Of a stretch of 64,000 nt of DNA, positions 8,743 to 26,583 are shown one piece after another (positions within the stretch are counted from its first letter, which is position 1; every line of letters starts with the position of its first letter). The notes beneath the pieces were generated by a model. That model saw only the letters and a list, made by a program, of their open reading frames with translations, did no database searches and had not been told where the DNA came from. A program made the translations under genes and the position numbers. This stretch comes from an uncultured Alphaproteobacteria bacterium. Its GTDB lineage: Bacteria > Pseudomonadota > Alphaproteobacteria > HIMB59 > GCA-002718135. The stretch is taken from positions 515-64,514 of the forward strand of contig CACBQR010000002.1 of assembly GCA_902541435.1 (NCBI GenBank). The letters are read 5' to 3'.

Positions 8743-8940
8743 TTAATCCCACTCACAATTATTGGTAATTAGCAGGAGGAAATAATACTGTGAGTGGTAA
8801 GAAACATTTAAATTTTATTGTTTACAAATAGATTAATGGAATATTAAATTTTTATAAATTTAATTAATTTTTAACTTCATTAATTCTCAAATAAATTTTT
8901 TAGTTCTTTCAATTTATCAAAAATTGAATCTCTTACTTCT
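8743..8940. repeat. Direct repeat copy 2 (~198 bp); overlaps the genuine 3' end of arsC
   Basis: See copy 1. Contains hairpin 8749-8797 and the last ~20 codons of arsC. Confidence 0.85.
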
Positions 8941-9299
8941 CTAAATTTATCTAATTGGTTTGAATTAAAATGATCTGATGCCGGATCATCAAATGGTATT
9001 GAAAATATCTGAGCTTTGGAATTTAAAACTGGACATACCTCTTCTTTACAAAGCGTAAAAACGGTATTTAATTCATCTCTGAATTTGTTGTCTAAACTTT
9101 CAAAATCTTTTGAATAATGTTTTGATATATCAATATCGATTTCACCCATAACCTCGATAGCATTAGGATTAACTTCTTTGGGCACTGATCCTGCACTTTG
9201 AATAATGCAATTAGGATATAATTTTTTTGCAATTCCTTCAGCCATTTGACTTCTTGCTGAATTAGCAACACACATAAAAAGAATATTTTTATTTTTCAT
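8880..9299 (-). CDS. arsC: arsenate reductase, LMW-PTP (thioredoxin-coupled) type
   Basis: 139 aa. CVANSARSQMAEG is a CX5R(S) P-loop near the N-terminus. Two further Cys lie in LCKEEVCP. Confidence 0.8.
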   Translation of the reverse strand: MKNKNILFMCVANSARSQMAEGIAKKLYPNCIIQSAGSVPKEVNPNAIEVMGEIDIDISKHYSKDFESLDNKFRDELNTVFTLCKEEVCPVLNSKAQIFSIPFDDPASDHFNSNQLDKFREVRDSIFDKLKELKNLFEN

Positions 9300-9579: not shown

Positions 9580-9607
9580 ATTAATCAAATTGTAACAAAA
9601 ATTTAAC
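9580..9607 (+). promoter_or_regulatory. Candidate Pho-box-like element (three direct hexamers at 11-bp spacing)
   Basis: ATTAAT(9580) / TGTAAC(9591) / TTTAAC(9602), each followed by an A/T spacer, about 40 nt upstream of the DUF47-PiT start. The architecture resembles 7+4 bp PhoB boxes. Confidence 0.35.
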
Positions 9608-9646: not shown

Positions 9647-10309
9647 ATGTTTGGATTAAAAAGTGCATCATTATTTGGTGATACCAAAAAGCTTGAAAGA
9701 GAAATTGATGAGTTTGTTGATATTGTCTCTGAAGTGGGCTTAGTATTTAAATCGATAGTTCCAACTTATCTCAATCATTCTGCCAATGGTAAATTTGAGG
9801 AAATGGTTGAAAAAGTAAAAGAAATGGAAAGTAAGGCTGACAAAATTACGAAAGATGTTGAGCATACTCTTTATGAAGAAACACTAATCCCAGATGCAAG
9901 AAGTGATGTGTTACGACTTCTAGAACACATCGACGAATTAATTGGAATGTACCAAGGGAATTGTTATCACTTCTCTATTCAAAAACCTAATTTTCCAAAA
10001 GAGTTTCACCAAGATTTAATTGAGTTAACAGAGACAGTTGTAAACTGTGTTGAGTCACTTTGTTTGACTGTCCGATCATTTTTTAGAGATATTAAATCTG
10101 TTAGAGATAATGCTCATAAAGTAACTTTTTATGAAAAAGAATCTGATATAAAATTTAGTTCTCTTGCAAGAAGAATTTTTGATTCTGAATTACCTCTAGA
10201 TCAAAAAATGCATCTTCGTTATTTTGTAGAGAAGATTGATCGTATTTGTGATCAAGCAGAAGACATAGCTGACGAGGTTCAAATTTACGCTATTAAACGT
10301 TCCGTTTAA
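9647..10309 (+). CDS. DUF47 / TIGR00153-type PhoU-like phosphate-transport regulator
   Basis: 220 aa helical protein directly preceding a PiT transporter, which is the canonical pairing. The C-terminal D.ADE...Y ending is typical of the family. Confidence 0.75.
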   Translation: MFGLKSASLFGDTKKLEREIDEFVDIVSEVGLVFKSIVPTYLNHSANGKFEEMVEKVKEMESKADKITKDVEHTLYEETLIPDARSDVLRLLEHIDELIGMYQGNCYHFSIQKPNFPKEFHQDLIELTETVVNCVESLCLTVRSFFRDIKSVRDNAHKVTFYEKESDIKFSSLARRIFDSELPLDQKMHLRYFVEKIDRICDQAEDIADEVQIYAIKRSV

Positions 10310-10315
10310 TTTTCA

Positions 10316-11368
10316 ATGGAAATTACAATTCTAATTTTTTTATTTGGTGGTCTTTTTTTAGGTTGGTCACTTGGCGCCAATGATGCAGCAAATGTTTTTG
10401 GAACTGCAGTTGGAACACGAATGGTTAGTTTCACAAGTGCAGCAATAATTTGTAGTGTCTTTGTTATTCTAGGTGCAATTATTAGCGGAGCAGGCACAAC
10501 AGAAACTTTAGGTAAGTTAGGTGCTATTAATGCATTGCCTGGTGCTTTTGCAGCATGTGTGGCTGCGGGAATATCTGTATATTTAATGACCAAAGTTGGC
10601 TTGCCTGTTTCAACAACGCAAGCGATTGTTGGAGCAATTGTTGGTTGGAATTTATACACGGGATCTTCAACTAATCTTCAAGTTTTAATTACTATTTTAG
10701 GAACATGGATACTCTGTCCTATTATTGCAGGAGTTATTGCAATGGGTTTATTTACTTTTACAAAAAGAGTTATACTCAATAGAAAGTTACATATTCTCAG
10801 ACTTGATGCCTATACAAGAACAGCTTTACTTTTAGCGGGTACTTTTGGTGCTTATAGTTTAGGTGCAAACAATATTGCCAATGTAATGGGTGTCTTCGTA
10901 CCTATATCACCGTTTACTGATGTTACTATTGGAAATTTATTTGTCTTTTCCTCAAAAGAACAATTATTTCTTCTAGGTGGTTTAGCAATAGCTGTTGGTG
11001 TTTTTACTTACTCGAAAAGAGTTATGTTTACCGTTGGTAATGATCTCTTAAAAATGACACCAGTGGCAGCATTTATTGTTGTTATATCGCATTCTATTGT
11101 TTTATTTTTATTTGCATCCCAGGGTATAAGTGCTTTTTTACAATCTATAAATCTTCCCTCTATACCTTTGGTACCAGTATCAAGTTCCCAAGCTGTTGTC
11201 GGCGGCGTAATTGGAATTGGTCTTTTAAAAGGAGGAAAAGAGGTTCAATGGTCAATTGCAGGTAGAATTTCTTTGGGTTGGATGACGCTACCTATAATTG
11301 CAGCTTTAATTTCTTTAATTGTTTTATTTATTCTAGAAAATATTTTTAATTTAACGGTCTCTTTTTAA
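10316..11368 (+). CDS. pit: inorganic phosphate transporter, PiT family
   Basis: 350 aa polytopic. GANDAANVFGTAVG in the first half and GANNIANVMG in the second half are PiT signature repeats. Confidence 0.9.
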   Translation: MEITILIFLFGGLFLGWSLGANDAANVFGTAVGTRMVSFTSAAIICSVFVILGAIISGAGTTETLGKLGAINALPGAFAACVAAGISVYLMTKVGLPVSTTQAIVGAIVGWNLYTGSSTNLQVLITILGTWILCPIIAGVIAMGLFTFTKRVILNRKLHILRLDAYTRTALLLAGTFGAYSLGANNIANVMGVFVPISPFTDVTIGNLFVFSSKEQLFLLGGLAIAVGVFTYSKRVMFTVGNDLLKMTPVAAFIVVISHSIVLFLFASQGISAFLQSINLPSIPLVPVSSSQAVVGGVIGIGLLKGGKEVQWSIAGRISLGWMTLPIIAALISLIVLFILENIFNLTVSF

Positions 11369-11889
11369 TTAACTGCTCGATAAGAAAAAATAAAATCTTC
11401 TTGGATTTTTGACTCAATAGCTCCTTTTCTTCTTGCTCGCACTAGATCAATAGCTTCTTGTTTTTCATAATTAAATTCAACAAGTAAAATAGCAGCTATA
11501 GTGCCAGCTCTTCCTTTTCCTCCACGGCAATGTAAAACTATGTTTTTACCATCTATCAATTCGTTCTTTAATAAAACTTTTGTTGTTTCCCATTTATATT
11601 TAAAATCTTTATCTGGTGCTCCCATGTCATAAATGGGTAAATGGTACCAATGTAATTTATGTTCATAAATATTTTTGACAAACAAAGTTTTATCACACAA
11701 TTTTTCAAATTCGCTATCTTCAACAAAAGAAGTAATAGAACTACAATTATTATTTTTAAATATTTCTAATTCGTTTGCTAAAATTGTTTCTTCAAATAAA
11801 CCATTAGAGTTAAGACCTGGGAAAGAAGTTAATATAATTTTGCCTGCAAATGACTTAGAGTCAATAAAATCATAATTGCTAAATTGCAT
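11365..11889 (-). CDS. Cys-based (dual-specificity/CDKN3-like) protein phosphatase family protein
   Basis: 174 aa. HCRGGKGRAGT is a CX5R P-loop with an upstream D (YDMGAPD). The start codon directly abuts the stop of the phnZ-like gene (TAAATG on the minus strand). Confidence 0.75.
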   Translation of the reverse strand: MQFSNYDFIDSKSFAGKIILTSFPGLNSNGLFEETILANELEIFKNNNCSSITSFVEDSEFEKLCDKTLFVKNIYEHKLHWYHLPIYDMGAPDKDFKYKWETTKVLLKNELIDGKNIVLHCRGGKGRAGTIAAILLVEFNYEKQEAIDLVRARRKGAIESKIQEDFIFSYRAVN

Positions 11890-12465
11890 TTACGCTTGTT
11901 TAGCTAAAAAAGACTGTCTTGCTTCTTCTAAATAGGGGCGGAAATGTTCAACATCGGGAGTTTTTTTATCTAGAATTTTTGCTAAATCATCAAATCTTCT
12001 AAGCTCTACTGCTTCATCCATAAAAGGTTTGCTTATAAACGCATCTGCTTCTTCTTTTGTGAAAGGACCACCTTGAACTTTTAACGAAAGTTTCGATGCT
12101 TCTGATAGACTATCATAATAACCTTCTTCAACACTTGATAAATATCTTTTTGAGTCAACATGTGCTCTAATTGGTAGAATAACATCCTCACCAAAATATT
12201 TTTTTAAAAAATCAGCACCTAAATTTTCATGATGACCATCTTTCCCTTCATGAATGGGATCGCCGTCCTCATAGATAAGGTGGCCAACATCATGCAGTAA
12301 TGCTGCAGCAATTGTTGGTCCTGGTAATTTATGTTTTTCAGCAAGTTCAGCACATTGGAGTGCGTGCTCAAGCTGGGTCACATCCTCATTACCATATTGA
12401 ATATCAGCACCTTTTGTTTTCAAAAGATGTAAGAGATAGTCTACAATATTTTCTTCCATTTTCAT
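11890..12465 (-). CDS. phnZ: PhnZ-family HD-domain (mixed-valent diiron) oxygenase, phosphonate C-P cleaving type
   Basis: 191 aa. QLEHALQCA, AALLHDVGH, HHENLGADFL, AHVDSKRYL and GGPF match the H...HD...H...H...D ligand pattern and spacing of PhnZ/TmpB-type proteins. Confidence 0.75.
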   Translation of the reverse strand: MKMEENIVDYLLHLLKTKGADIQYGNEDVTQLEHALQCAELAEKHKLPGPTIAAALLHDVGHLIYEDGDPIHEGKDGHHENLGADFLKKYFGEDVILPIRAHVDSKRYLSSVEEGYYDSLSEASKLSLKVQGGPFTKEEADAFISKPFMDEAVELRRFDDLAKILDKKTPDVEHFRPYLEEARQSFLAKQA

Positions 12466-12553
12466 TTATAATTAACTTATTAGAAAATAAATTCAATTCC
12501 AACTTTAATAAGATTGATCAAATTTATAATAATATTTATTAAGTAAATATTTA

Positions 12554-13651
12554 ATGGATAAAAAATTATTAACCCCTGGTCCTCTCACGACATCGATGTC
12601 AACAAAAGAGGCTATGCTTCATGATTGGGGTTCGAGAGATACAAAATTTATTGATCTCAATGCATCAATTAGAGATTCCCTTGTTAAATTAATAGACGGT
12701 GAAGATAAATATCAATGTGTTCCAATGCAGGGAAGTGGAACTTTTGCCGTAGAGTCGATGGTAAGCTCTCTTACTCAAAAAGATTCTAAAATTCTGATTC
12801 TGATCAATGGTGCTTACGGACAAAGAATGAAAAAAATGTGCACATATTTAGGGAGAGATTTTATTGAATATGAAGTTGCTGAACATGAAGTACATGACAT
12901 CAATAAAATTGAAGACTTAATTGATAGCAACAACTTAACACACGTCTTTGCCGTATATTGTGAAACAACATCGGGTATTTTAAATCCTATTGAAGACATT
13001 GCAAAATTGGTTGAGGGGAAAAATTTATCGTTATTCATCGATGCAATGAGTGCCTTTGGTGCATTACCCTTAAGTTCTAAAACAATTACTTTTGATGCTG
13101 TAGCCGCTTCATCAAACAAATGCTTAGAAGGTGTGCCAGGTGTTGGTTTCATTCTTGTTAAAAATGAAGTTATTCAAAATGCAAAAGGCAATAGTCACTC
13201 ACTAAGTCTAGACTTGTATGATCAATGGCAAGCAATGGAAAAAAATAAACAATGGCGATTTACACCTCCAACACACGTATTAGCTGCATTCAACCAAGCT
13301 ATTGAAGAACATAAAGAACAAGGCGGTGTAAAAGGAAGAGGTAAAAGATATAAAAAAAATTGTGAAATTATTTGTAATGGAATGAAAGAGTTGGGATTTG
13401 AGCAACTACTTCCTGATAATTTACAAGCACCAATTATTATTACGTTTAAACAACCTAATGATCCTAAATTTAACTTTGAGAAATTTTATAATGCTCTTAG
13501 TGAAAAAGATTTTTTAATTTATCCAGGAAAACTAACAGTGGCAGAAACTTTTAGAATTGGGTGTATTGGTAATTTAGATGAACAAGACATGATGGATACA
13601 ATAAAAGCTGTAAAAGAAGTCGTTACTGAATTGGGATTAACATTAAACTAA
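12554..13651 (+). CDS. phnW: 2-aminoethylphosphonate--pyruvate transaminase
   Basis: 365 aa. LLTPGPLTTS, YCETTSGILNP, SSNKCLEGVPG (PLP Lys), WRFTPPTH, FRIGCIG. Confidence 0.9.
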   Translation: MDKKLLTPGPLTTSMSTKEAMLHDWGSRDTKFIDLNASIRDSLVKLIDGEDKYQCVPMQGSGTFAVESMVSSLTQKDSKILILINGAYGQRMKKMCTYLGRDFIEYEVAEHEVHDINKIEDLIDSNNLTHVFAVYCETTSGILNPIEDIAKLVEGKNLSLFIDAMSAFGALPLSSKTITFDAVAASSNKCLEGVPGVGFILVKNEVIQNAKGNSHSLSLDLYDQWQAMEKNKQWRFTPPTHVLAAFNQAIEEHKEQGGVKGRGKRYKKNCEIICNGMKELGFEQLLPDNLQAPIIITFKQPNDPKFNFEKFYNALSEKDFLIYPGKLTVAETFRIGCIGNLDEQDMMDTIKAVKEVVTELGLTLN

Positions 13652-13658
13652 CAAAATA

Positions 13659-14291
13659 ATGACAAAAGAAATTGAAATACCATTAGTTAAAGCAACAAAT
13701 GAAAATCTTAAAGGATACGGATATTTAATCGATAGTTTTGAAAATAGTGATATTGAAATTGTTACTTGGCCAAAACAAGGATGGCGCGACATAGAAGAGG
13801 GAACTGGTAATGAAGGTGGAACTACCGAAGGTTCTTTTGATACCTGGTGGCAAGGTGATGTGCTTTATGGACAAAATAATGCTGTCCAACATAAGAGCGA
13901 TTATGAAGTAGATGGAAAATATATACTGGGTTATGCCAATAACCCCGATCAAGAATTGCAAAAAGATAAATATTCAGATCCAACAAAAATATTTCTATGG
14001 CATGCAAATTATCATCCTGATGGAGGTCAGCTTTTTTTTCCTGCAGAAAATAAACCATTTATTTGTCCTTTAGCTTTACCAACAGACGACATCGAACCAG
14101 AACATTTCAAAGCATTTTATTGTGATGGATCAAAAGGTTTGTATATTCATCCAAACATTTGGCATGAAGGGGTGTTTCCAGTTAAAGAAAAACAATCATT
14201 TCATGGAAAACAAGGTAAAGTACATGCAAGAGTTAGCATCGACTTAAAAGAGGAATTTAATAAGTATATTTATTTTAAAACTGCGATCTAA
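13659..14291 (+). CDS. ureidoglycolate lyase (AllA)-like beta-barrel protein, function here unknown
   Basis: 210 aa. N-terminal L..AT.ENLKGYGYLI, NYHPDGGQLFFP and GLYIHPNIWHEGVF parallel AllA blocks (AYG.VI, ERHP...Q.F.P, GVNYH..VWH.P). 7 nt downstream of phnW. Confidence 0.5.
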   Translation: MTKEIEIPLVKATNENLKGYGYLIDSFENSDIEIVTWPKQGWRDIEEGTGNEGGTTEGSFDTWWQGDVLYGQNNAVQHKSDYEVDGKYILGYANNPDQELQKDKYSDPTKIFLWHANYHPDGGQLFFPAENKPFICPLALPTDDIEPEHFKAFYCDGSKGLYIHPNIWHEGVFPVKEKQSFHGKQGKVHARVSIDLKEEFNKYIYFKTAI

Positions 14292-19802: not shown

Positions 19803-19830
19803 GTTACAATTTTATTACGAAAATATTACT
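19803..19830 (-). promoter_or_regulatory. Candidate Pho-box-like element (three direct repeats at exact 11-bp spacing)
   Basis: Minus strand reads AGTAAT-N5-CGTAAT-N5-TGTAAC (plus-strand GTTAC 19803, ATTAC 19814, ATTAC 19825). It lies 52-79 nt upstream of the SBP start, and a GGAGGG RBS follows. Confidence 0.4.
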
Positions 19831-19887: not shown

Positions 19888-21330
19888 TTACCAAGGTAGC
19901 GAAAAGGTTTTTACATTAGTAAAACTTTTCATTGCTTCAATAACACCCTCTTTGTAACCAAGACCTGAATCTTTAATTCCTCCAAAAGGAGACATTTCAA
20001 TTCTATAACCTGGAACCTCCCAAATATTTACCGTACCAACATTTAAACCTTGAATATATTTTTTTGCTCGCATGAAGTTATTTGTACATACACCAGATGA
20101 TAATCCGAATGCGGTTGAATTAGATATTTTCATTACAGCTTCATCGTCATTAGGCACACGAATGATTGGGATAACTGGACCAAATGTTTCTTCTAAAACT
20201 AATTCACTTTTAGGATCAACATGATCTACAACTATTGGAGGTAACAAAGCACCCTTTCTTCCAGGGTGATATAAAATTTTTGCGCCGTCTTCTTCAGCCA
20301 TAGAAACTCTTTTATCAAAAAGTTCTGCAGCTTGAGCATTAACAACTGTACCTAAGTCTGTTTCCATATTCATAGGATCACCAAATTTAATTTTCTTTGC
20401 ACGCTCAAGAGCCATTTCAACAAATTGATCTGCAATGGATTCTTGAACCAATATTCTTTTAACAGCTGTACAACGTTGACCAGAATTTTTCGTTGCTCCC
20501 GTAACAGCTAGTTCAACAGCTTTTTTAAGATCATCACCATCTAAGTCATTTAAAACAATTAATGGATCATTACCACCTAACTCAAGAACAGTTCTTTTGT
20601 ATCCAGCTTGTTCAGCAATTAATTTTCCTACACCCACACTGCCTGTAAAAGTAATTAGATCAATGTTTGGATTTTTGATCATTTCTGATCCAATGTCTTG
20701 AGGCCATCCAGTTACAACTGAAAACATTTCGGGTGGCAGGCCTGCTTCATATAAAACATCGGCGAGTACCATTGCTGTTAAAGGTGTTAATTCTGTTTGT
20801 TTACATACAGTACAATTATTAGTTGCAATTGAAGGTGCAATTTTATGCGCTACCATATTCAAAGGATGATTAAATGGGGTGATTGCTGAGATTGCCGTTA
20901 AAGGTTCTCTTATGGTAAATATTTTTCTGGCTTTTCCATGTGGAGTTAAATCACAAGAAAATATTTCTCCATCATCATGAATACAAAGTTGAGCCGTTAA
21001 TGAAAATACATCGAAAGCTCTTCCTACTTCGTATAAAGAATCTTGTTTTGAGATACCAAGTTCTAAAGTAATAATATCAGAAATTTCTTCTTTTCTTTTA
21101 ACAAGTACTTCTGCAGCAGTTTGAAGAATTTTTTGTCTCTCATATCTTGTAAGTTTAGGCTGATAATTTGCAGCTATATCTAAAGCCTTTCTTGCATGCT
21201 CTGCGGTACCGGCTGGAACCGTTCCGATTACTTCACCTGTAAAAGGGTACTCAACATTTATTGTTTTATCTGAAGTAACTTTTTCTCCAGCAATACGCAT
21301 TGCTTCATTAATCATTTTTTTGTGCATCAT
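19888..21330 (-). CDS. phnY: phosphonoacetaldehyde dehydrogenase (aldehyde dehydrogenase family)
   Basis: 480 aa ALDH. ELGGNDP and GQRCTA (catalytic Cys) are present. 4-nt overlap with phnA upstream. Specific function is inferred from context. Confidence 0.75.
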
Positions 21331-22568
21331 AGGGCTCCATTTATTGCATAATAAAATGCATCATAGTTATATAATTGTTTGCTAGTATCTAAGTTTTGTA
21401 ATTTTAAATTTGATATGAATGGCACTTCTCTTTCATGGAGTCCTCCATGAGAACGTAAAGGTTCATTTAATCCAGAAAGATTGTGTTTATCTTCCGATGA
21501 ACCAATAGTCATAAATTCTGAAGACATACATATAATATCTCCCATTCTATCAGGAGGTAAATTGTAAGTAGAGCATCCTTCATCTTTTGTTAAAACAACT
21601 TCTATATCTTTTATTTCTTTAATAGCATTTACAACTGAATCTACCTTGCTCTTGTCTTCTAAATAAATTGTTGCAAAAGAACCAAGTGAACCATGATGAA
21701 CAACATATGGATCTGTAATTGGTAGGATGACTTTAGCCATGTTTGGTTCAAATTTTTTATCTAAATAATCTTGTAAAAATATTGCATTAGGTGAACCATC
21801 TTCTTTTGATTTTGGTTTCATTCCGTGATCTGCTGTGATGATTATAGAAACATTCTCATTATTTAAAAGACCAATATATTTATCAAACATTGCATAAAAT
21901 TTATTTGCTGTTTCATTTCCCGGTGCATATTTGTGTTGAATATAATCCGTAGTCGATAAATACATAATATTTGGTTTAAACTCTTCAAGAAGTTTTACAC
22001 CTGCAGCCATCACAAATTCAGAGAGTCCTTCAGAATATACTTCTGGCACTGGCATCCCCAACCAATCGTTTACATTATCTATACCATTGAGATCTTTTGT
22101 TGCTTGATCAGATTTTTCAGCAGAAAAACAAATAGCTCTCTCATCATCAAAACTTAATCCGTTTCCTAAAAGTGTTCTCAACTTGTCTTTTGCAGTAACA
22201 AGAGCAATTTTAGAACCAGAATTGTAAAATTTTTCAAAAATAGTTGGTGCTCGCATATATTTTGGGTCATTCATCATAACTTCTTCACCAGTCTCAGGTG
22301 TATAAAAGAAGTTTCCGCATATACCGTGTACAGAACTTGGTTGGCCTGTTACAATCGAAATGTTATTTGGATTTGTAAAACTTGGAATAGCGCTGTGAAC
22401 AAGTAGGTTTTCACCACTTGCAATTAATTTATCAAGATTTGGTGTAAGATTAGATTTTGATGCTTCTTCGAGATACTCTTTTTGACTACCATCAAGGCAT
22501 ATAACAATAGCAGTTTTTGAGAAAGAGTTTGGATATTCTCTTTTATTAATTTCTAAATTATCGGACAC
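21327..22568 (-). CDS. phnA: phosphonoacetate hydrolase (alkaline-phosphatase superfamily)
   Basis: 413 aa, GTG start. [42 protein letters not shown]. Confidence 0.85.
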
Positions 22569-25734: not shown

Positions 25735-26583
25735 ATGACATTGTCAGTAAATTTTATTTTTATCTTAATTCTTGTATCTGCTCTATGTCACGCAGTTTGG
25801 AGTGCTATAATAAAATCAAGTAAGAACCCTTTATCGTTAATGGGTATAACATCTGTCTTAGAAGTTACTATTTTTTTACCCTTAACATTTACTGTTCCAT
25901 TTCCAACTTTGGAGGTTTGGTATTTTTTAATTGCAACTGTAATCATTCATGTCTTCTACAGACTAAATGTTATCTACTCATATAGGTACGGTGATCTCTC
26001 TTACATATATCCAATTTCTAGAGGAAGTTCATGTTTGTTTGTAGCGATCATTAGTATTTTATTTTTAAGTTCTGATATTAGTGTTGCTGGTTTCGTAGGA
26101 ATTTTAATTGTTTGTATTGGGTTATTTTTAATTTCTTATTCTAAAAATTTATCTTTTAACTTCAGAGGTTTTGCTCTCGCAATATCAACGGCTATTCTAA
26201 TTACTGCTTACACTTTAGTTGACGGAGTCGGGGTGAGACTTTCTGAAAATGGTTTTTCCTATATTTACTGGCTCTTCACACTTAATGGAATACCTTTGCT
26301 AATTATTGGTTTGATCTCGAAAGATGGTTTACGAAAAAGAGAAACATACACATTTAGATCGGGGATTGCTGCTGGTGTATTTGCAACAAGTAGTTACGCA
26401 ATTGTTGTTTGGAGTATGCAATTTATAGAAATAGCGTATGTCTCAAGTATCAGAGAAATCAGTATTGTCTTTGCCACCATTATTGGAATGGTTTTTTTAT
26501 TTGAAAGAAATGCTAAATCGAGAATAATTCCCTCTATTTTAATAGTAAGTGGTATTTCAGTGGTCTATTTTCAAATTCTTTAG
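25735..26583 (+). CDS. EamA/DMT-family transporter
   Basis: 282 aa, about 10 TM, two-repeat DMT architecture. Confidence 0.65.
   Translation: MTLSVNFIFILILVSALCHAVWSAIIKSSKNPLSLMGITSVLEVTIFLPLTFTVPFPTLEVWYFLIATVIIHVFYRLNVIYSYRYGDLSYIYPISRGSSCLFVAIISILFLSSDISVAGFVGILIVCIGLFLISYSKNLSFNFRGFALAISTAILITAYTLVDGVGVRLSENGFSYIYWLFTLNGIPLLIIGLISKDGLRKRETYTFRSGIAAGVFATSSYAIVVWSMQFIEIAYVSSIREISIVFATIIGMVFLFERNAKSRIIPSILIVSGISVVYFQIL

Follow-up and report, generated by a model that had tools for sequence, protein, structure and literature searches.

We examined a 64,000-nucleotide window of DNA from an uncultured, streamlined marine alphaproteobacterium of the HIMB59 lineage (assembly GCA_902541435.1; 1.2 Mb, 75% complete; genome size ~1.5 Mb), in which a gene for an HD-domain diiron oxygenase is followed directly by a gene for a cysteine-based phosphatase. 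The oxygenase belongs to a clade that is new within a known family, that of PhnZ and TmpB. The new element is its strict pairing with the Cys-phosphatase, which, as far as the searchable literature shows, seems to be undescribed. A sequence-only reading of this DNA had placed the pair outside any described pathway, and we found no paper combining phnZ with a dual specificity phosphatase; the paper on the HIMB59 island is silent on the matter. The elements of the pair are as follows.

11890-12465, minus strand: gene for the PhnZ/TmpB-family HD-domain mixed-valent diiron oxygenase, 191 aa (TIGR03276, PDB matches, ligands).
11365-11889, minus strand: gene for the cytoplasmic Cys-based (CX5R) dual-specificity-type phosphatase, 174 aa (Pfam PTP-SAK, AlphaFold2 model, Foldseek).
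11887-11892, minus strand: TAAATG junction of the HD stop codon and the phosphatase start codon (read directly).

Scored against the NCBIfam model for phosphonate degradation HD-domain oxygenases (Phn-HD, TIGR03276), the HD protein reached 201.5 bits, under the cut-off of 214.6. It scored 154.5 bits on the TmpB equivalog model (NF049941) and 152.5 bits on the GmPhnZ1 equivalog model (NF052439), reaching neither cut-off (300 for both). For calibration, the crystallised PhnZ fragment scored 189 bits on TIGR03276, while TmpB scored 200 bits on TIGR03276 and 345 bits on its own model. Thus, the HD protein is as good a family member as PhnZ, and it is neither the TmpB nor the GmPhnZ1 equivalog. The full-length clade members that we scanned all matched TIGR03276 best, at 200-206 bits and just under the cut-off. 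Among known structures, the best match of the HD protein was TmpB (6NPA; E 2.6e-32, 115.6 bits), followed by PhnZ (4MLM; E 7.5e-29, 104 bits).

Alignment revealed that the active site is intact. All diiron ligands are kept (H34, H58, D59, H79, H102, and D159, equivalent to PhnZ H34, H58, D59, H80, H104, and D161), with invariance judged over seven aligned sequences, and the presence of all six rules out an ordinary HD phosphohydrolase that lacks this ligand set. The HD protein also retains H62, K106, S124, S127, Q131, and R156, positions that we take to line the phosphonate pocket of PhnZ. The YxxE loop (Y24-G-N-E27) is kept in the clade, in PhnZ, and in TmpB. In this substrate-gating loop, the tyrosine caps Fe2 and the glutamate binds the substrate amino group (PMC8177086). 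The comparison with PhnZ that the sequence-only reading had proposed therefore found the loop and all pocket-aligned residues in place. Since the Fe ligands, the loop, and these residues are conserved, they argue for a free phosphonate with a 2-amino group as the substrate. The ratio of nonsynonymous to synonymous substitution rates (dN/dS) for the HD protein is 0.03-0.17.

The Phn-HD family comprises 1,822 clusters at 50% identity (E <= 1e-10). We built a tree of 124 representatives in which PhnZ, TmpB, and domain-fusion proteins served as landmarks, and the HD protein fell into its own marine clade with a long stem (SH-aLRT 100). The position of this clade is weakly on the side of PhnZ, away from TmpB and the clades with TauD, PhyH, PhnX, and PhnN fusions. 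Family scores, structural matches, conserved active site, and tree placement all agree with the earlier call of a PhnZ-like oxygenase. Judged by its sequence, the protein is a real PhnZ/TmpB-family diiron oxygenase in a separate clade, and not canonical PhnZ, TmpB, or GmPhnZ1.

The partner gene encodes a protein with the P-loop VLHCRGGKGRAGT at residues 118-130. It scored 49.2 bits on Pfam PTP-SAK (cut-off 27), with weaker matches to DSPc, Y_phosphatase, and CDKN3. Using its AlphaFold2 (AF2) model (pLDDT 90.4, pTM 0.87), which has the alpha/beta fold of protein tyrosine phosphatases (PTPs), we found with Foldseek that KAP/CDKN3 was the top match (TM score 0.79), followed by PRL-1/2/3, SsoPTP, and Tk-PTP (TM scores 0.65-0.79, probability 1.00). 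The sequence profile ranked SsoPTP, Tk-PTP, the PRLs, and a bacterial dual-specificity phosphatase (DSP) first. Thus, P-loop, general-acid residue, fold, and PTP-SAK score bear out the assignment to CX5R dual-specificity-type phosphatases. The narrower label of CDKN3-like agrees with the top structural match; against it, the Pfam score for PF05706 is 20.3 bits versus 20.7, and the profile prefers SsoPTP, Tk-PTP, and PRL.

The phosphatase appears to be active. In 13 sequences, with identity down to 55%, the P-loop H120-C121-R-G-G-K-G-R127-A-G-T, the general acid D88 (in a PIxD loop), and Q163 are invariant. Of the basic P-loop residues, R122 is variable and K125 is nearly invariant. C49 and C65 both vary, so that no second cysteine is conserved. 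With dN/dS of 0.06-0.24 against six orthologues, the invariance of the catalytic residues argues for an active enzyme under purifying selection, and no signal peptide is visible in the sequence. The protein is thus predicted to be a catalytically competent cytoplasmic enzyme. A lipid or inositol-phosphate phosphatase of the PTEN/VSP/PFA-DSP kind, an idea prompted by the basic P-loop, was unsupported by the profile and the fold ranking, and R122 is variable.

On the minus strand, the junction reads GCG TAA ATG CAA. Both the open reading frame (ORF) list and a direct read confirmed that the HD stop codon (11890-11892) abuts the phosphatase start codon (11887-11889), as the sequence-only reading had described. 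The same zero-spacer arrangement is found in genus-mates (e.g., G147, 153648/153652), and spacers of about 5-31 bp separate the genes in other arrangements. We found no terminator-like site between or after the two genes in a search of 11000-13000, where promoter-like matches were at chance level (12 versus 9.9 ± 4.1 in shuffles). At its other end, the phosphatase stop codon overlaps that of a convergent PHO4/Pit gene (10316-11368) by 3 nt, and the ORF intervals including stops share 4 nt (11365-11368).

We determined how strictly the two genes are linked in an order-level sample of 151 genomes. The coupling proved tight and conserved, as the co-occurrence statistics proposed earlier show: HD and phosphatase genes were present in exactly the same 71 genomes, with both in 70 of the 79 genomes of one family and in none of the 71 of another. 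Among the sampled genomes, the phosphatase was never seen without the HD gene. The two were adjacent in 84 of the 86 loci that hold both. Over these 86 loci, the neighbor on the HD side was phnW (76), EamA (7), another gene (2), or the contig end (1), while on the phosphatase side it was Pit (73), ArsC (6), or another gene (7). Loss of Pit (6 loci) or phnW (7 loci) from the adjacent position leaves the phosphatase in place.

Other layouts connect the pair to an importer. In seven genomes and two metagenome contigs, the order is HD, phnS2, phnT2-phnU2-phosphatase, Pit, with the phosphatase gene 27-38 bp after phnU2. In a third layout, the HD-phosphatase pair is followed by phnS2 and phnT2U2. 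A phn_DUF6/EamA homologue directly adjoins the HD gene in other arrangements. The phosphatase gene is always the terminal gene of an operon with either the HD gene or the PhnT2U2 importer. Across the clade, the genes near the HD gene match PhnS2T2U2 over their cut-offs and have phn_DUF6 and Phn_aa_oxid as best matches under theirs. We detected no PhnU2 in this genome or in four near-complete genus-mates (best score 72 bits versus a cut-off of 593), all of which keep the HD-phosphatase pair. Within this genus, the oxygenase is thus the one partner of the phosphatase that stays constant. An HD orthologue with 73% identity in a non-streamlined organism (L100) has no phosphatase on the available contig fragment. 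Distant phosphatase homologues (27-44% identity) occur in 27 of 400 sampled other Alphaproteobacteria. However, none of the 20 loci that we inspected had an HD gene, PhnS2/U2, or Pit within 8 kb, and we reject a wider phosphatase-phosphonate link across other Alphaproteobacteria.

Additional genes adjoin the pair in some relatives. A gene for a 335-aa secreted protein lies between phosphatase and Pit, 8 bp downstream and co-directional, at L068:10534-11541 (also in L070), and a gene for a 290-aa NAD-dependent epimerase-like protein lies between them on the other strand at L093:4550-5422. A gene for a Phn_aa_oxid FAD oxidoreductase (TIGR03329, 587 bits) adjoins the HD gene at L102:2744-4159 and L158:1251-2657; in L158, it sits between phnW and the HD gene, in the place of a cupin gene described below.

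The pair sits inside a phosphorus-scavenging island. In order, this contains Ppk, PlcP-type lipid-remodelling genes, ArsC, PhoU_div and Pit, and the HD-phosphatase pair; then phnW, an AllA-like cupin, a GpdQ/SpdA-like metallophosphoesterase, a methyltransferase-like protein, an Fe-dependent alcohol dehydrogenase, and a short MetE-like protein; and finally a UgpB-like binding protein, phnY and phnA, UgpCAE-like ABC components, and a phn_DUF6/EamA membrane protein. The features that bear on the pair are these.

9647-11368, plus strand: PhoU_div (DUF47) and PHO4/Pit-type phosphate transporter genes, convergent with the phosphatase gene (Pfam PF01865, PF01384).
12466-12553, no strand: divergent intergenic region of 88 bp between the HD-phosphatase operon and the phnW-cupin-esterase operon.
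12554-13651, plus strand: phnW (2-aminoethylphosphonate:pyruvate transaminase), divergent neighbor (NF010006, 511 bits, cut-off 296).
13659-14291, plus strand: AllA-family (ureidoglycolate-lyase-like) cupin gene, directly 3′ of phnW (Pfam PF04115, 42 bits).
19888-22568, minus strand: phnY (phosphonoacetaldehyde dehydrogenase; TIGR03250, 799 bits, cut-off 636) and phnA (phosphonoacetate hydrolase; TIGR02335, 469 bits, cut-off 408).
25735-26583, plus strand: gene for the phn_DUF6/EamA "phosphonate utilization associated" membrane protein (TIGR03340, 142 bits; cut-off of 288 not reached).

Since phnW, phnY, and phnA, which lie within ~10 kb of the HD gene, all exceed their curated equivalog cut-offs, the hydrolytic route for 2-aminoethylphosphonate (AEP) is complete. 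Candidate Pho boxes, GTAAY repeats with 11-bp spacing, occur at 9581-9607 (plus strand), 5′ of the PhoU_div-Pit operon, and at 19803-19829 (minus strand), 5′ of the UgpB-like binding-protein gene. We found no such repeat 5′ of the phnW operon, and the pattern is barely above chance in the whole window (27 matches versus 19 ± 4 expected). A gene with the low-molecular-weight PTP (LMW-PTP) fold at 8880-9299 (minus strand) had its highest score as a thioredoxin-type arsenate reductase (93 bits, under the cut-off) and reached only 28 bits as Wzb. This ArsC-like gene is probably what the published description of the HIMB59 island (Molina-Pardines et al., 2023) calls a "Wzb tyrosine phosphatase". 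Because the LMW-PTP/ArsC gene fits that label, we rejected the identification of the CX5R gene with it.

The sequence-only reading regarded the HD oxygenase as an orphan, having recognized no TauD/PhyH-like dioxygenase in the window. Hidden Markov model (HMM) searches of the whole genome with Pfam PhyH and TauD yielded nine and two genes, respectively, none of them on contig C2, which carries the window. A hydroxylase just outside the window is ruled out, as the contig is 68,004 bp long, the window covers 515-64514, and the remaining ~4 kb holds no PhyH or TauD gene. We also saw no hydroxylase replacing an island neighbor in the gene order of the 86 related loci. Eight of the nine PhyH genes were scanned (the weakest, on C27, was unscanned) and none resembled PhnY* (best 61 bits versus a cut-off of 500). 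Of the two TauD-family genes, that on C24 is GBBH-like and lies in a betaine-type cluster; the other, on C21, is considered below. The HD oxygenase thus has no adjacent or co-distributed Fe/2-oxoglutarate (Fe/2OG) hydroxylase. What does not stand is the novelty of this state, as orphan PhnZ is already documented and common.

In a survey of 19,425 complete genomes, Zangelmi et al. (2021; Biochemistry 60:1214, PMC8154272) found phnZ in 24 of 75 (32%) phnWAY clusters and 15 of 1,186 phnWX clusters, versus only 7 phnY*Z clusters (their Table 1). In that survey, phnZ never co-occurs with pbfA, PhnW-PhnX is reported to handle (R)-1-hydroxy-2-aminoethylphosphonate (R-HAEP) poorly, and phnZ is read as a separate outlet for this natural compound. 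Lockwood et al. (2022) classed 45% of marine phnZ as Pelagibacterales-type and found phnZ with phnA or phnX in 30-50% of cases, while Murphy et al. (2021) split phnZ into subclades of which only the original one is AEP-specific. The locus in our window fits a cluster of the Zangelmi type, with phnW, phnY, phnA, and a phnZ homologue and without phnY*. General family scans revealed no class-III aminotransferase among the island genes; no search aimed at PbfA was made.

Another suggestion of the sequence-only reading, that some other enzyme of the island makes the hydroxylated substrate, found no support. The AllA-like cupin was the candidate for the missing hydroxylase, and its profile search returned ureidoglycolate lyases (AllA structures 1XSR/1YQC, E 3.5e-9) and no oxygenases; its AF2 model was unusable (pLDDT 43). 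A 210-aa cupin of this family always directly follows phnW, including in the non-streamlined organism (L100:7178-7819; also L101:628-1266 and others). It has invariant His/Asp-rich motifs (WHxNYHPDGGQ and HPNxWH), ureidoglycolate lyase structures match its residues 104-181 only, and its role in aminophosphonate clusters is undescribed. Of the explanations offered earlier, acquisition of the hydroxylated substrate from the environment is the best supported. In the relatives with the simplest layout, the HD protein is the sole phosphonate enzyme beside PhnS2T2U2 (all three components over curated cut-offs) and phn_DUF6, an arrangement that fits an enzyme whose substrate is imported with the hydroxyl group in place.

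Elsewhere in the family, Phn-HD domains are fused to PhnX phosphonatase, PhnN kinase, a zinc-dependent alcohol dehydrogenase, DUF5690, a major facilitator superfamily transporter, and a class II aldolase, as well as to TauD and PhyH hydroxylases (representatives P0254, P0265, P0249, P0250, P0272, and P0315). The PhnX part of the Phn-HD-PhnX fusion scored 344 bits on the phosphonatase model. The PhnX and PhnN fusions show directly that the family is put to use as an add-on to non-oxidative (hydrolytic and C-P-lyase) routes. Together, the fusions point to a partner range for PhnZ-type oxygenases that is wider than the textbook hydroxylase.

A model that we favor, and hold as a whole with moderate confidence, is that a stand-alone oxygenase acts on imported HAEP while the phosphatase works in parallel. 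The HD protein would be a PhnZ-family mixed-valent diiron oxygenase that breaks, by oxidation, the C-P bond in a free (R)-1-hydroxy-2-amino(alkyl)phosphonate. The substrate would be imported ready-made; the most likely candidate is (R)-1-hydroxy-2-aminoethylphosphonate (HAEP), or else a closely related N-alkyl compound, and the products would be glycine (or its N-alkyl form) and phosphate. The enzyme would form a side branch to the PhnW-PhnY-PhnA route, which takes plain AEP and not the hydroxylated form. The phosphatase, as the obligatory last gene of an aminophosphonate uptake and cleavage module, may free phosphate from a phosphomonoester, which could be a look-alike of the imported aminophosphonates or another small phospho-compound or peptide. 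Since the oxygenase product is already inorganic phosphate, the phosphatase would act in parallel rather than in sequence, on an imported or cellular phosphoester and in the same starvation response. We infer both substrates and the parallel role of the phosphatase, and this last part we put forward tentatively, as somewhat doubtful.

Several points weigh against this model. The clade is distinct from all characterized PhnZ, TmpB, and GmPhnZ1, so that another 1-hydroxyphosphonate, such as hydroxymethylphosphonate or N-methylated HAEP, is possible as the substrate. Most enzymes with a PTP fold of the KAP/PRL/SsoPTP type dephosphorylate proteins, and they tend to do poorly with alkyl phosphates. 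Perfect co-occurrence with a single oxygenase is also not what one would expect of a phosphatase that scavenges phosphate generically; the co-occurrence itself comes from one bacterial family, whose genomes are related and not independent. Finally, no Pho-box-like GTAAY-N6-GTAAY repeat was found in 12466-12553, upstream of the HD-phosphatase operon.

The two enzymes could instead act in sequence. One imported compound would carry both a phosphonate and a phosphoester, or be O-phosphorylated, and the phosphatase would unmask the 1-hydroxyphosphonate that the oxygenase then cleaves. The perfect co-occurrence (71/71) and the abutting start and stop codons favor this possibility, as does the retention of the phosphatase with the HD gene where the importer is gone or Pit or phnW is not adjacent. 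The failure to find a protein kinase (see below) and the small-molecule kinases of the APH type that adjoin the HD gene in relatives L098, L099, and L102 point the same way. However, the phosphatase gene follows phnU2, outside the HD operon, in seven genomes and two metagenome loci, and the PhnZ pocket of the HD protein, suited to a free phosphonate whose 1-OH is also free, is fully retained. Elsewhere, members of the PhnZ family function with no phosphatase at all, and the distant phosphatase homologues in other Alphaproteobacteria have no phosphonate context. We know of no natural compound with both groups. We therefore consider it unlikely that this abundant ocean lineage uses the pair as an undescribed two-enzyme route on a natural product combining a 1-hydroxyphosphonate with a phosphoester or phosphoanhydride, and equally that the oxygenase needs the phosphatase for its turnover in vivo.

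The APH-fold kinases are themselves unexpected in a phosphorus-scavenging cluster. Their genes lie divergently beside the HD gene (L098:8556-8954, L099:5173-6048, and L102:923-2732), and their best match is the guanitoxin N-oxide kinase GntI (153-158 bits); they are also thiamine-kinase-like.

Alternatively, the CX5R protein could be a regulatory phosphatase or pseudophosphatase that controls a transporter or regulator of the island, as PRL binds and regulates CNNM magnesium transporters. Its closest folds are KAP, PRL-1/2/3 (several in CNNM complexes), and archaeal protein phosphatases, and its gene is always by importer genes, after PhnU2 or convergent with Pit. Nevertheless, no Hanks-type kinase (PF00069) or BY-kinase (TIGR01007) exceeded the cut-off, either in this genome, which is 75% complete, or in five relatives with a completeness of 90% or more. 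This makes a classical kinase-phosphatase switch unlikely. The phosphatase also persists without PhnS2T2U2 and in the six loci where Pit is not its neighbor. Regulation of this kind is thus also an improbable role.

A partner could also act in trans, and the second TauD-family gene (C21:1742-2818, 358 aa) is the candidate. Its product would hydroxylate 2-(trimethylammonio)ethylphosphonate (TMAEP) or a related aminophosphonate, with the HD protein carrying out a TmpB-like second step. TmpA is the best match of the C21 protein both in NCBIfam (314 bits versus 267 for GBBH) and among structures (6NPB, 162 bits versus 137 for BBOX), and TmpB is the best structural match of the HD protein. However, the C21 protein falls below the TmpA cut-off of 400 bits, and its gene lies among sugar-metabolism genes. 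The sister family has zero HD genes, yet 55 of its 71 genomes carry an orthologue (E < 1e-100), and the frequency of orthologues in HD-bearing genomes (56/70) is close to that in HD-less ones (58/80), HD-less members of the same family included; 14 of the 70 HD-bearing genomes, which are incomplete, lack one. The HD protein, for its part, scores far from a true TmpB on the TmpB model (154 versus 345 bits; cut-off 300), and in the tree it is apart from TmpB and the TauD-fusion clades. Distribution and sugar-gene context lead us to reject the C21 gene as a dedicated, conserved partner. The sequence-only reading had named a PhnY*/TmpA homologue conserved as a partner elsewhere as a refutation; a TmpA homologue does exist in the genome, but it is not conserved as a partner. 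The C21 enzyme, which is found across both families of the order, probably acts on a quaternary amine other than TMAEP, and we judge a two-step route in trans to be quite unlikely.

Arsenate handling, in which the CX5R protein would reduce or detoxify arsenate entering via Pit during phosphate starvation, is very improbable: CX5R loops bind arsenate, and in 73 of 86 loci the gene converges with Pit, while in 6 it lies beside arsC, but the island already has a thioredoxin-type ArsC (8880-9299), there is no second conserved cysteine (C49 and C65 vary), the fold is that of a DSP and not of rhodanese/Cdc25 or LMW-PTP, and the gene remains where Pit no longer adjoins.

In ocean metagenomes, phnZ-like genes serve as markers of AEP oxidation, with estimates from <1% to ~20% of surface bacteria, and the spread depends on the inclusion of uncharacterized clades (PMC10574752, PMC8316502, PMC9381506). 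The HD clade described here is one of those. Since it is without a hydroxylase, it cannot start from AEP, and it points to an unmeasured seawater pool of ready-hydroxylated aminophosphonates. The strictly linked phosphatase gives a way in to the real substrate. Its membership in the same pathway would mean new chemistry; otherwise, a eukaryote-like signalling fold would have been turned to nutrient scavenging, an unusual use, in a genome of ~1.5 Mb. Were either the two-enzyme route or the need of the oxygenase for the phosphatase true, the "phnZ" genes that are commonest in the ocean would stand for a pathway and a substrate unlike textbook AEP oxidation.

Compared with known systems, the phosphatase shares its fold, HCX5R P-loop, general-acid Asp, and size with KAP/CDKN3 (1FPZ), PRL-1/2/3, SsoPTP (2I6I), and Tk-PTP (5Z5A), at identities of only 20-30%. 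Unlike these DSPs, it lies in a bacterial phosphonate/phosphate scavenging operon, in a genome without a recognizable Ser/Thr/Tyr kinase. With TmpB of Leisingera caerulea (6NPA), its best structural match, the HD protein has the active-site set in common, but it remains below the TmpB equivalog cut-off, there is no tmpA beside its gene, and the unlinked TmpA-like gene does not share its distribution. The PhnZ of uncultured bacterium HF130_AEPn_1, an (R)-1-hydroxy-2-aminoethylphosphonate oxygenase (4MLM, 4MLN, and 4N6W), has the same length, ligand set, YxxE loop, and phosphonate-binding residues, and is loosely on the same side of the family tree. The family is divergent, as the best identity of canonical PhnZ to any row of the tree set is 43%. 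While canonical PhnZ is encoded beside PhnY* (PhyH family), the HD gene here lies beside a phosphatase gene, without a hydroxylase.

The closest parallel is with the phnWAY and phnWX clusters with ancillary phnZ (Zangelmi et al., 2021). Both have a PhnZ homologue beside complete PhnW/PhnY/PhnA, without an Fe/2OG hydroxylase, and for both the proposed role is the separate processing of environmental (R)-HAEP. The enzyme here differs in belonging to a separate marine clade and in being always accompanied by a CX5R phosphatase, which the survey does not list, and the island adds an AllA-like cupin, a GpdQ-like esterase, and a UgpBAEC-like importer. PbfA, the (R)-HAEP ammonia-lyase, would hold an equal place in the pathway, that of an accessory enzyme that lets an AEP cluster use hydroxylated AEP. 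It is, however, an unrelated lyase dependent on pyridoxal phosphate that returns phosphonoacetaldehyde to the main route, whereas the HD enzyme would release phosphate directly.

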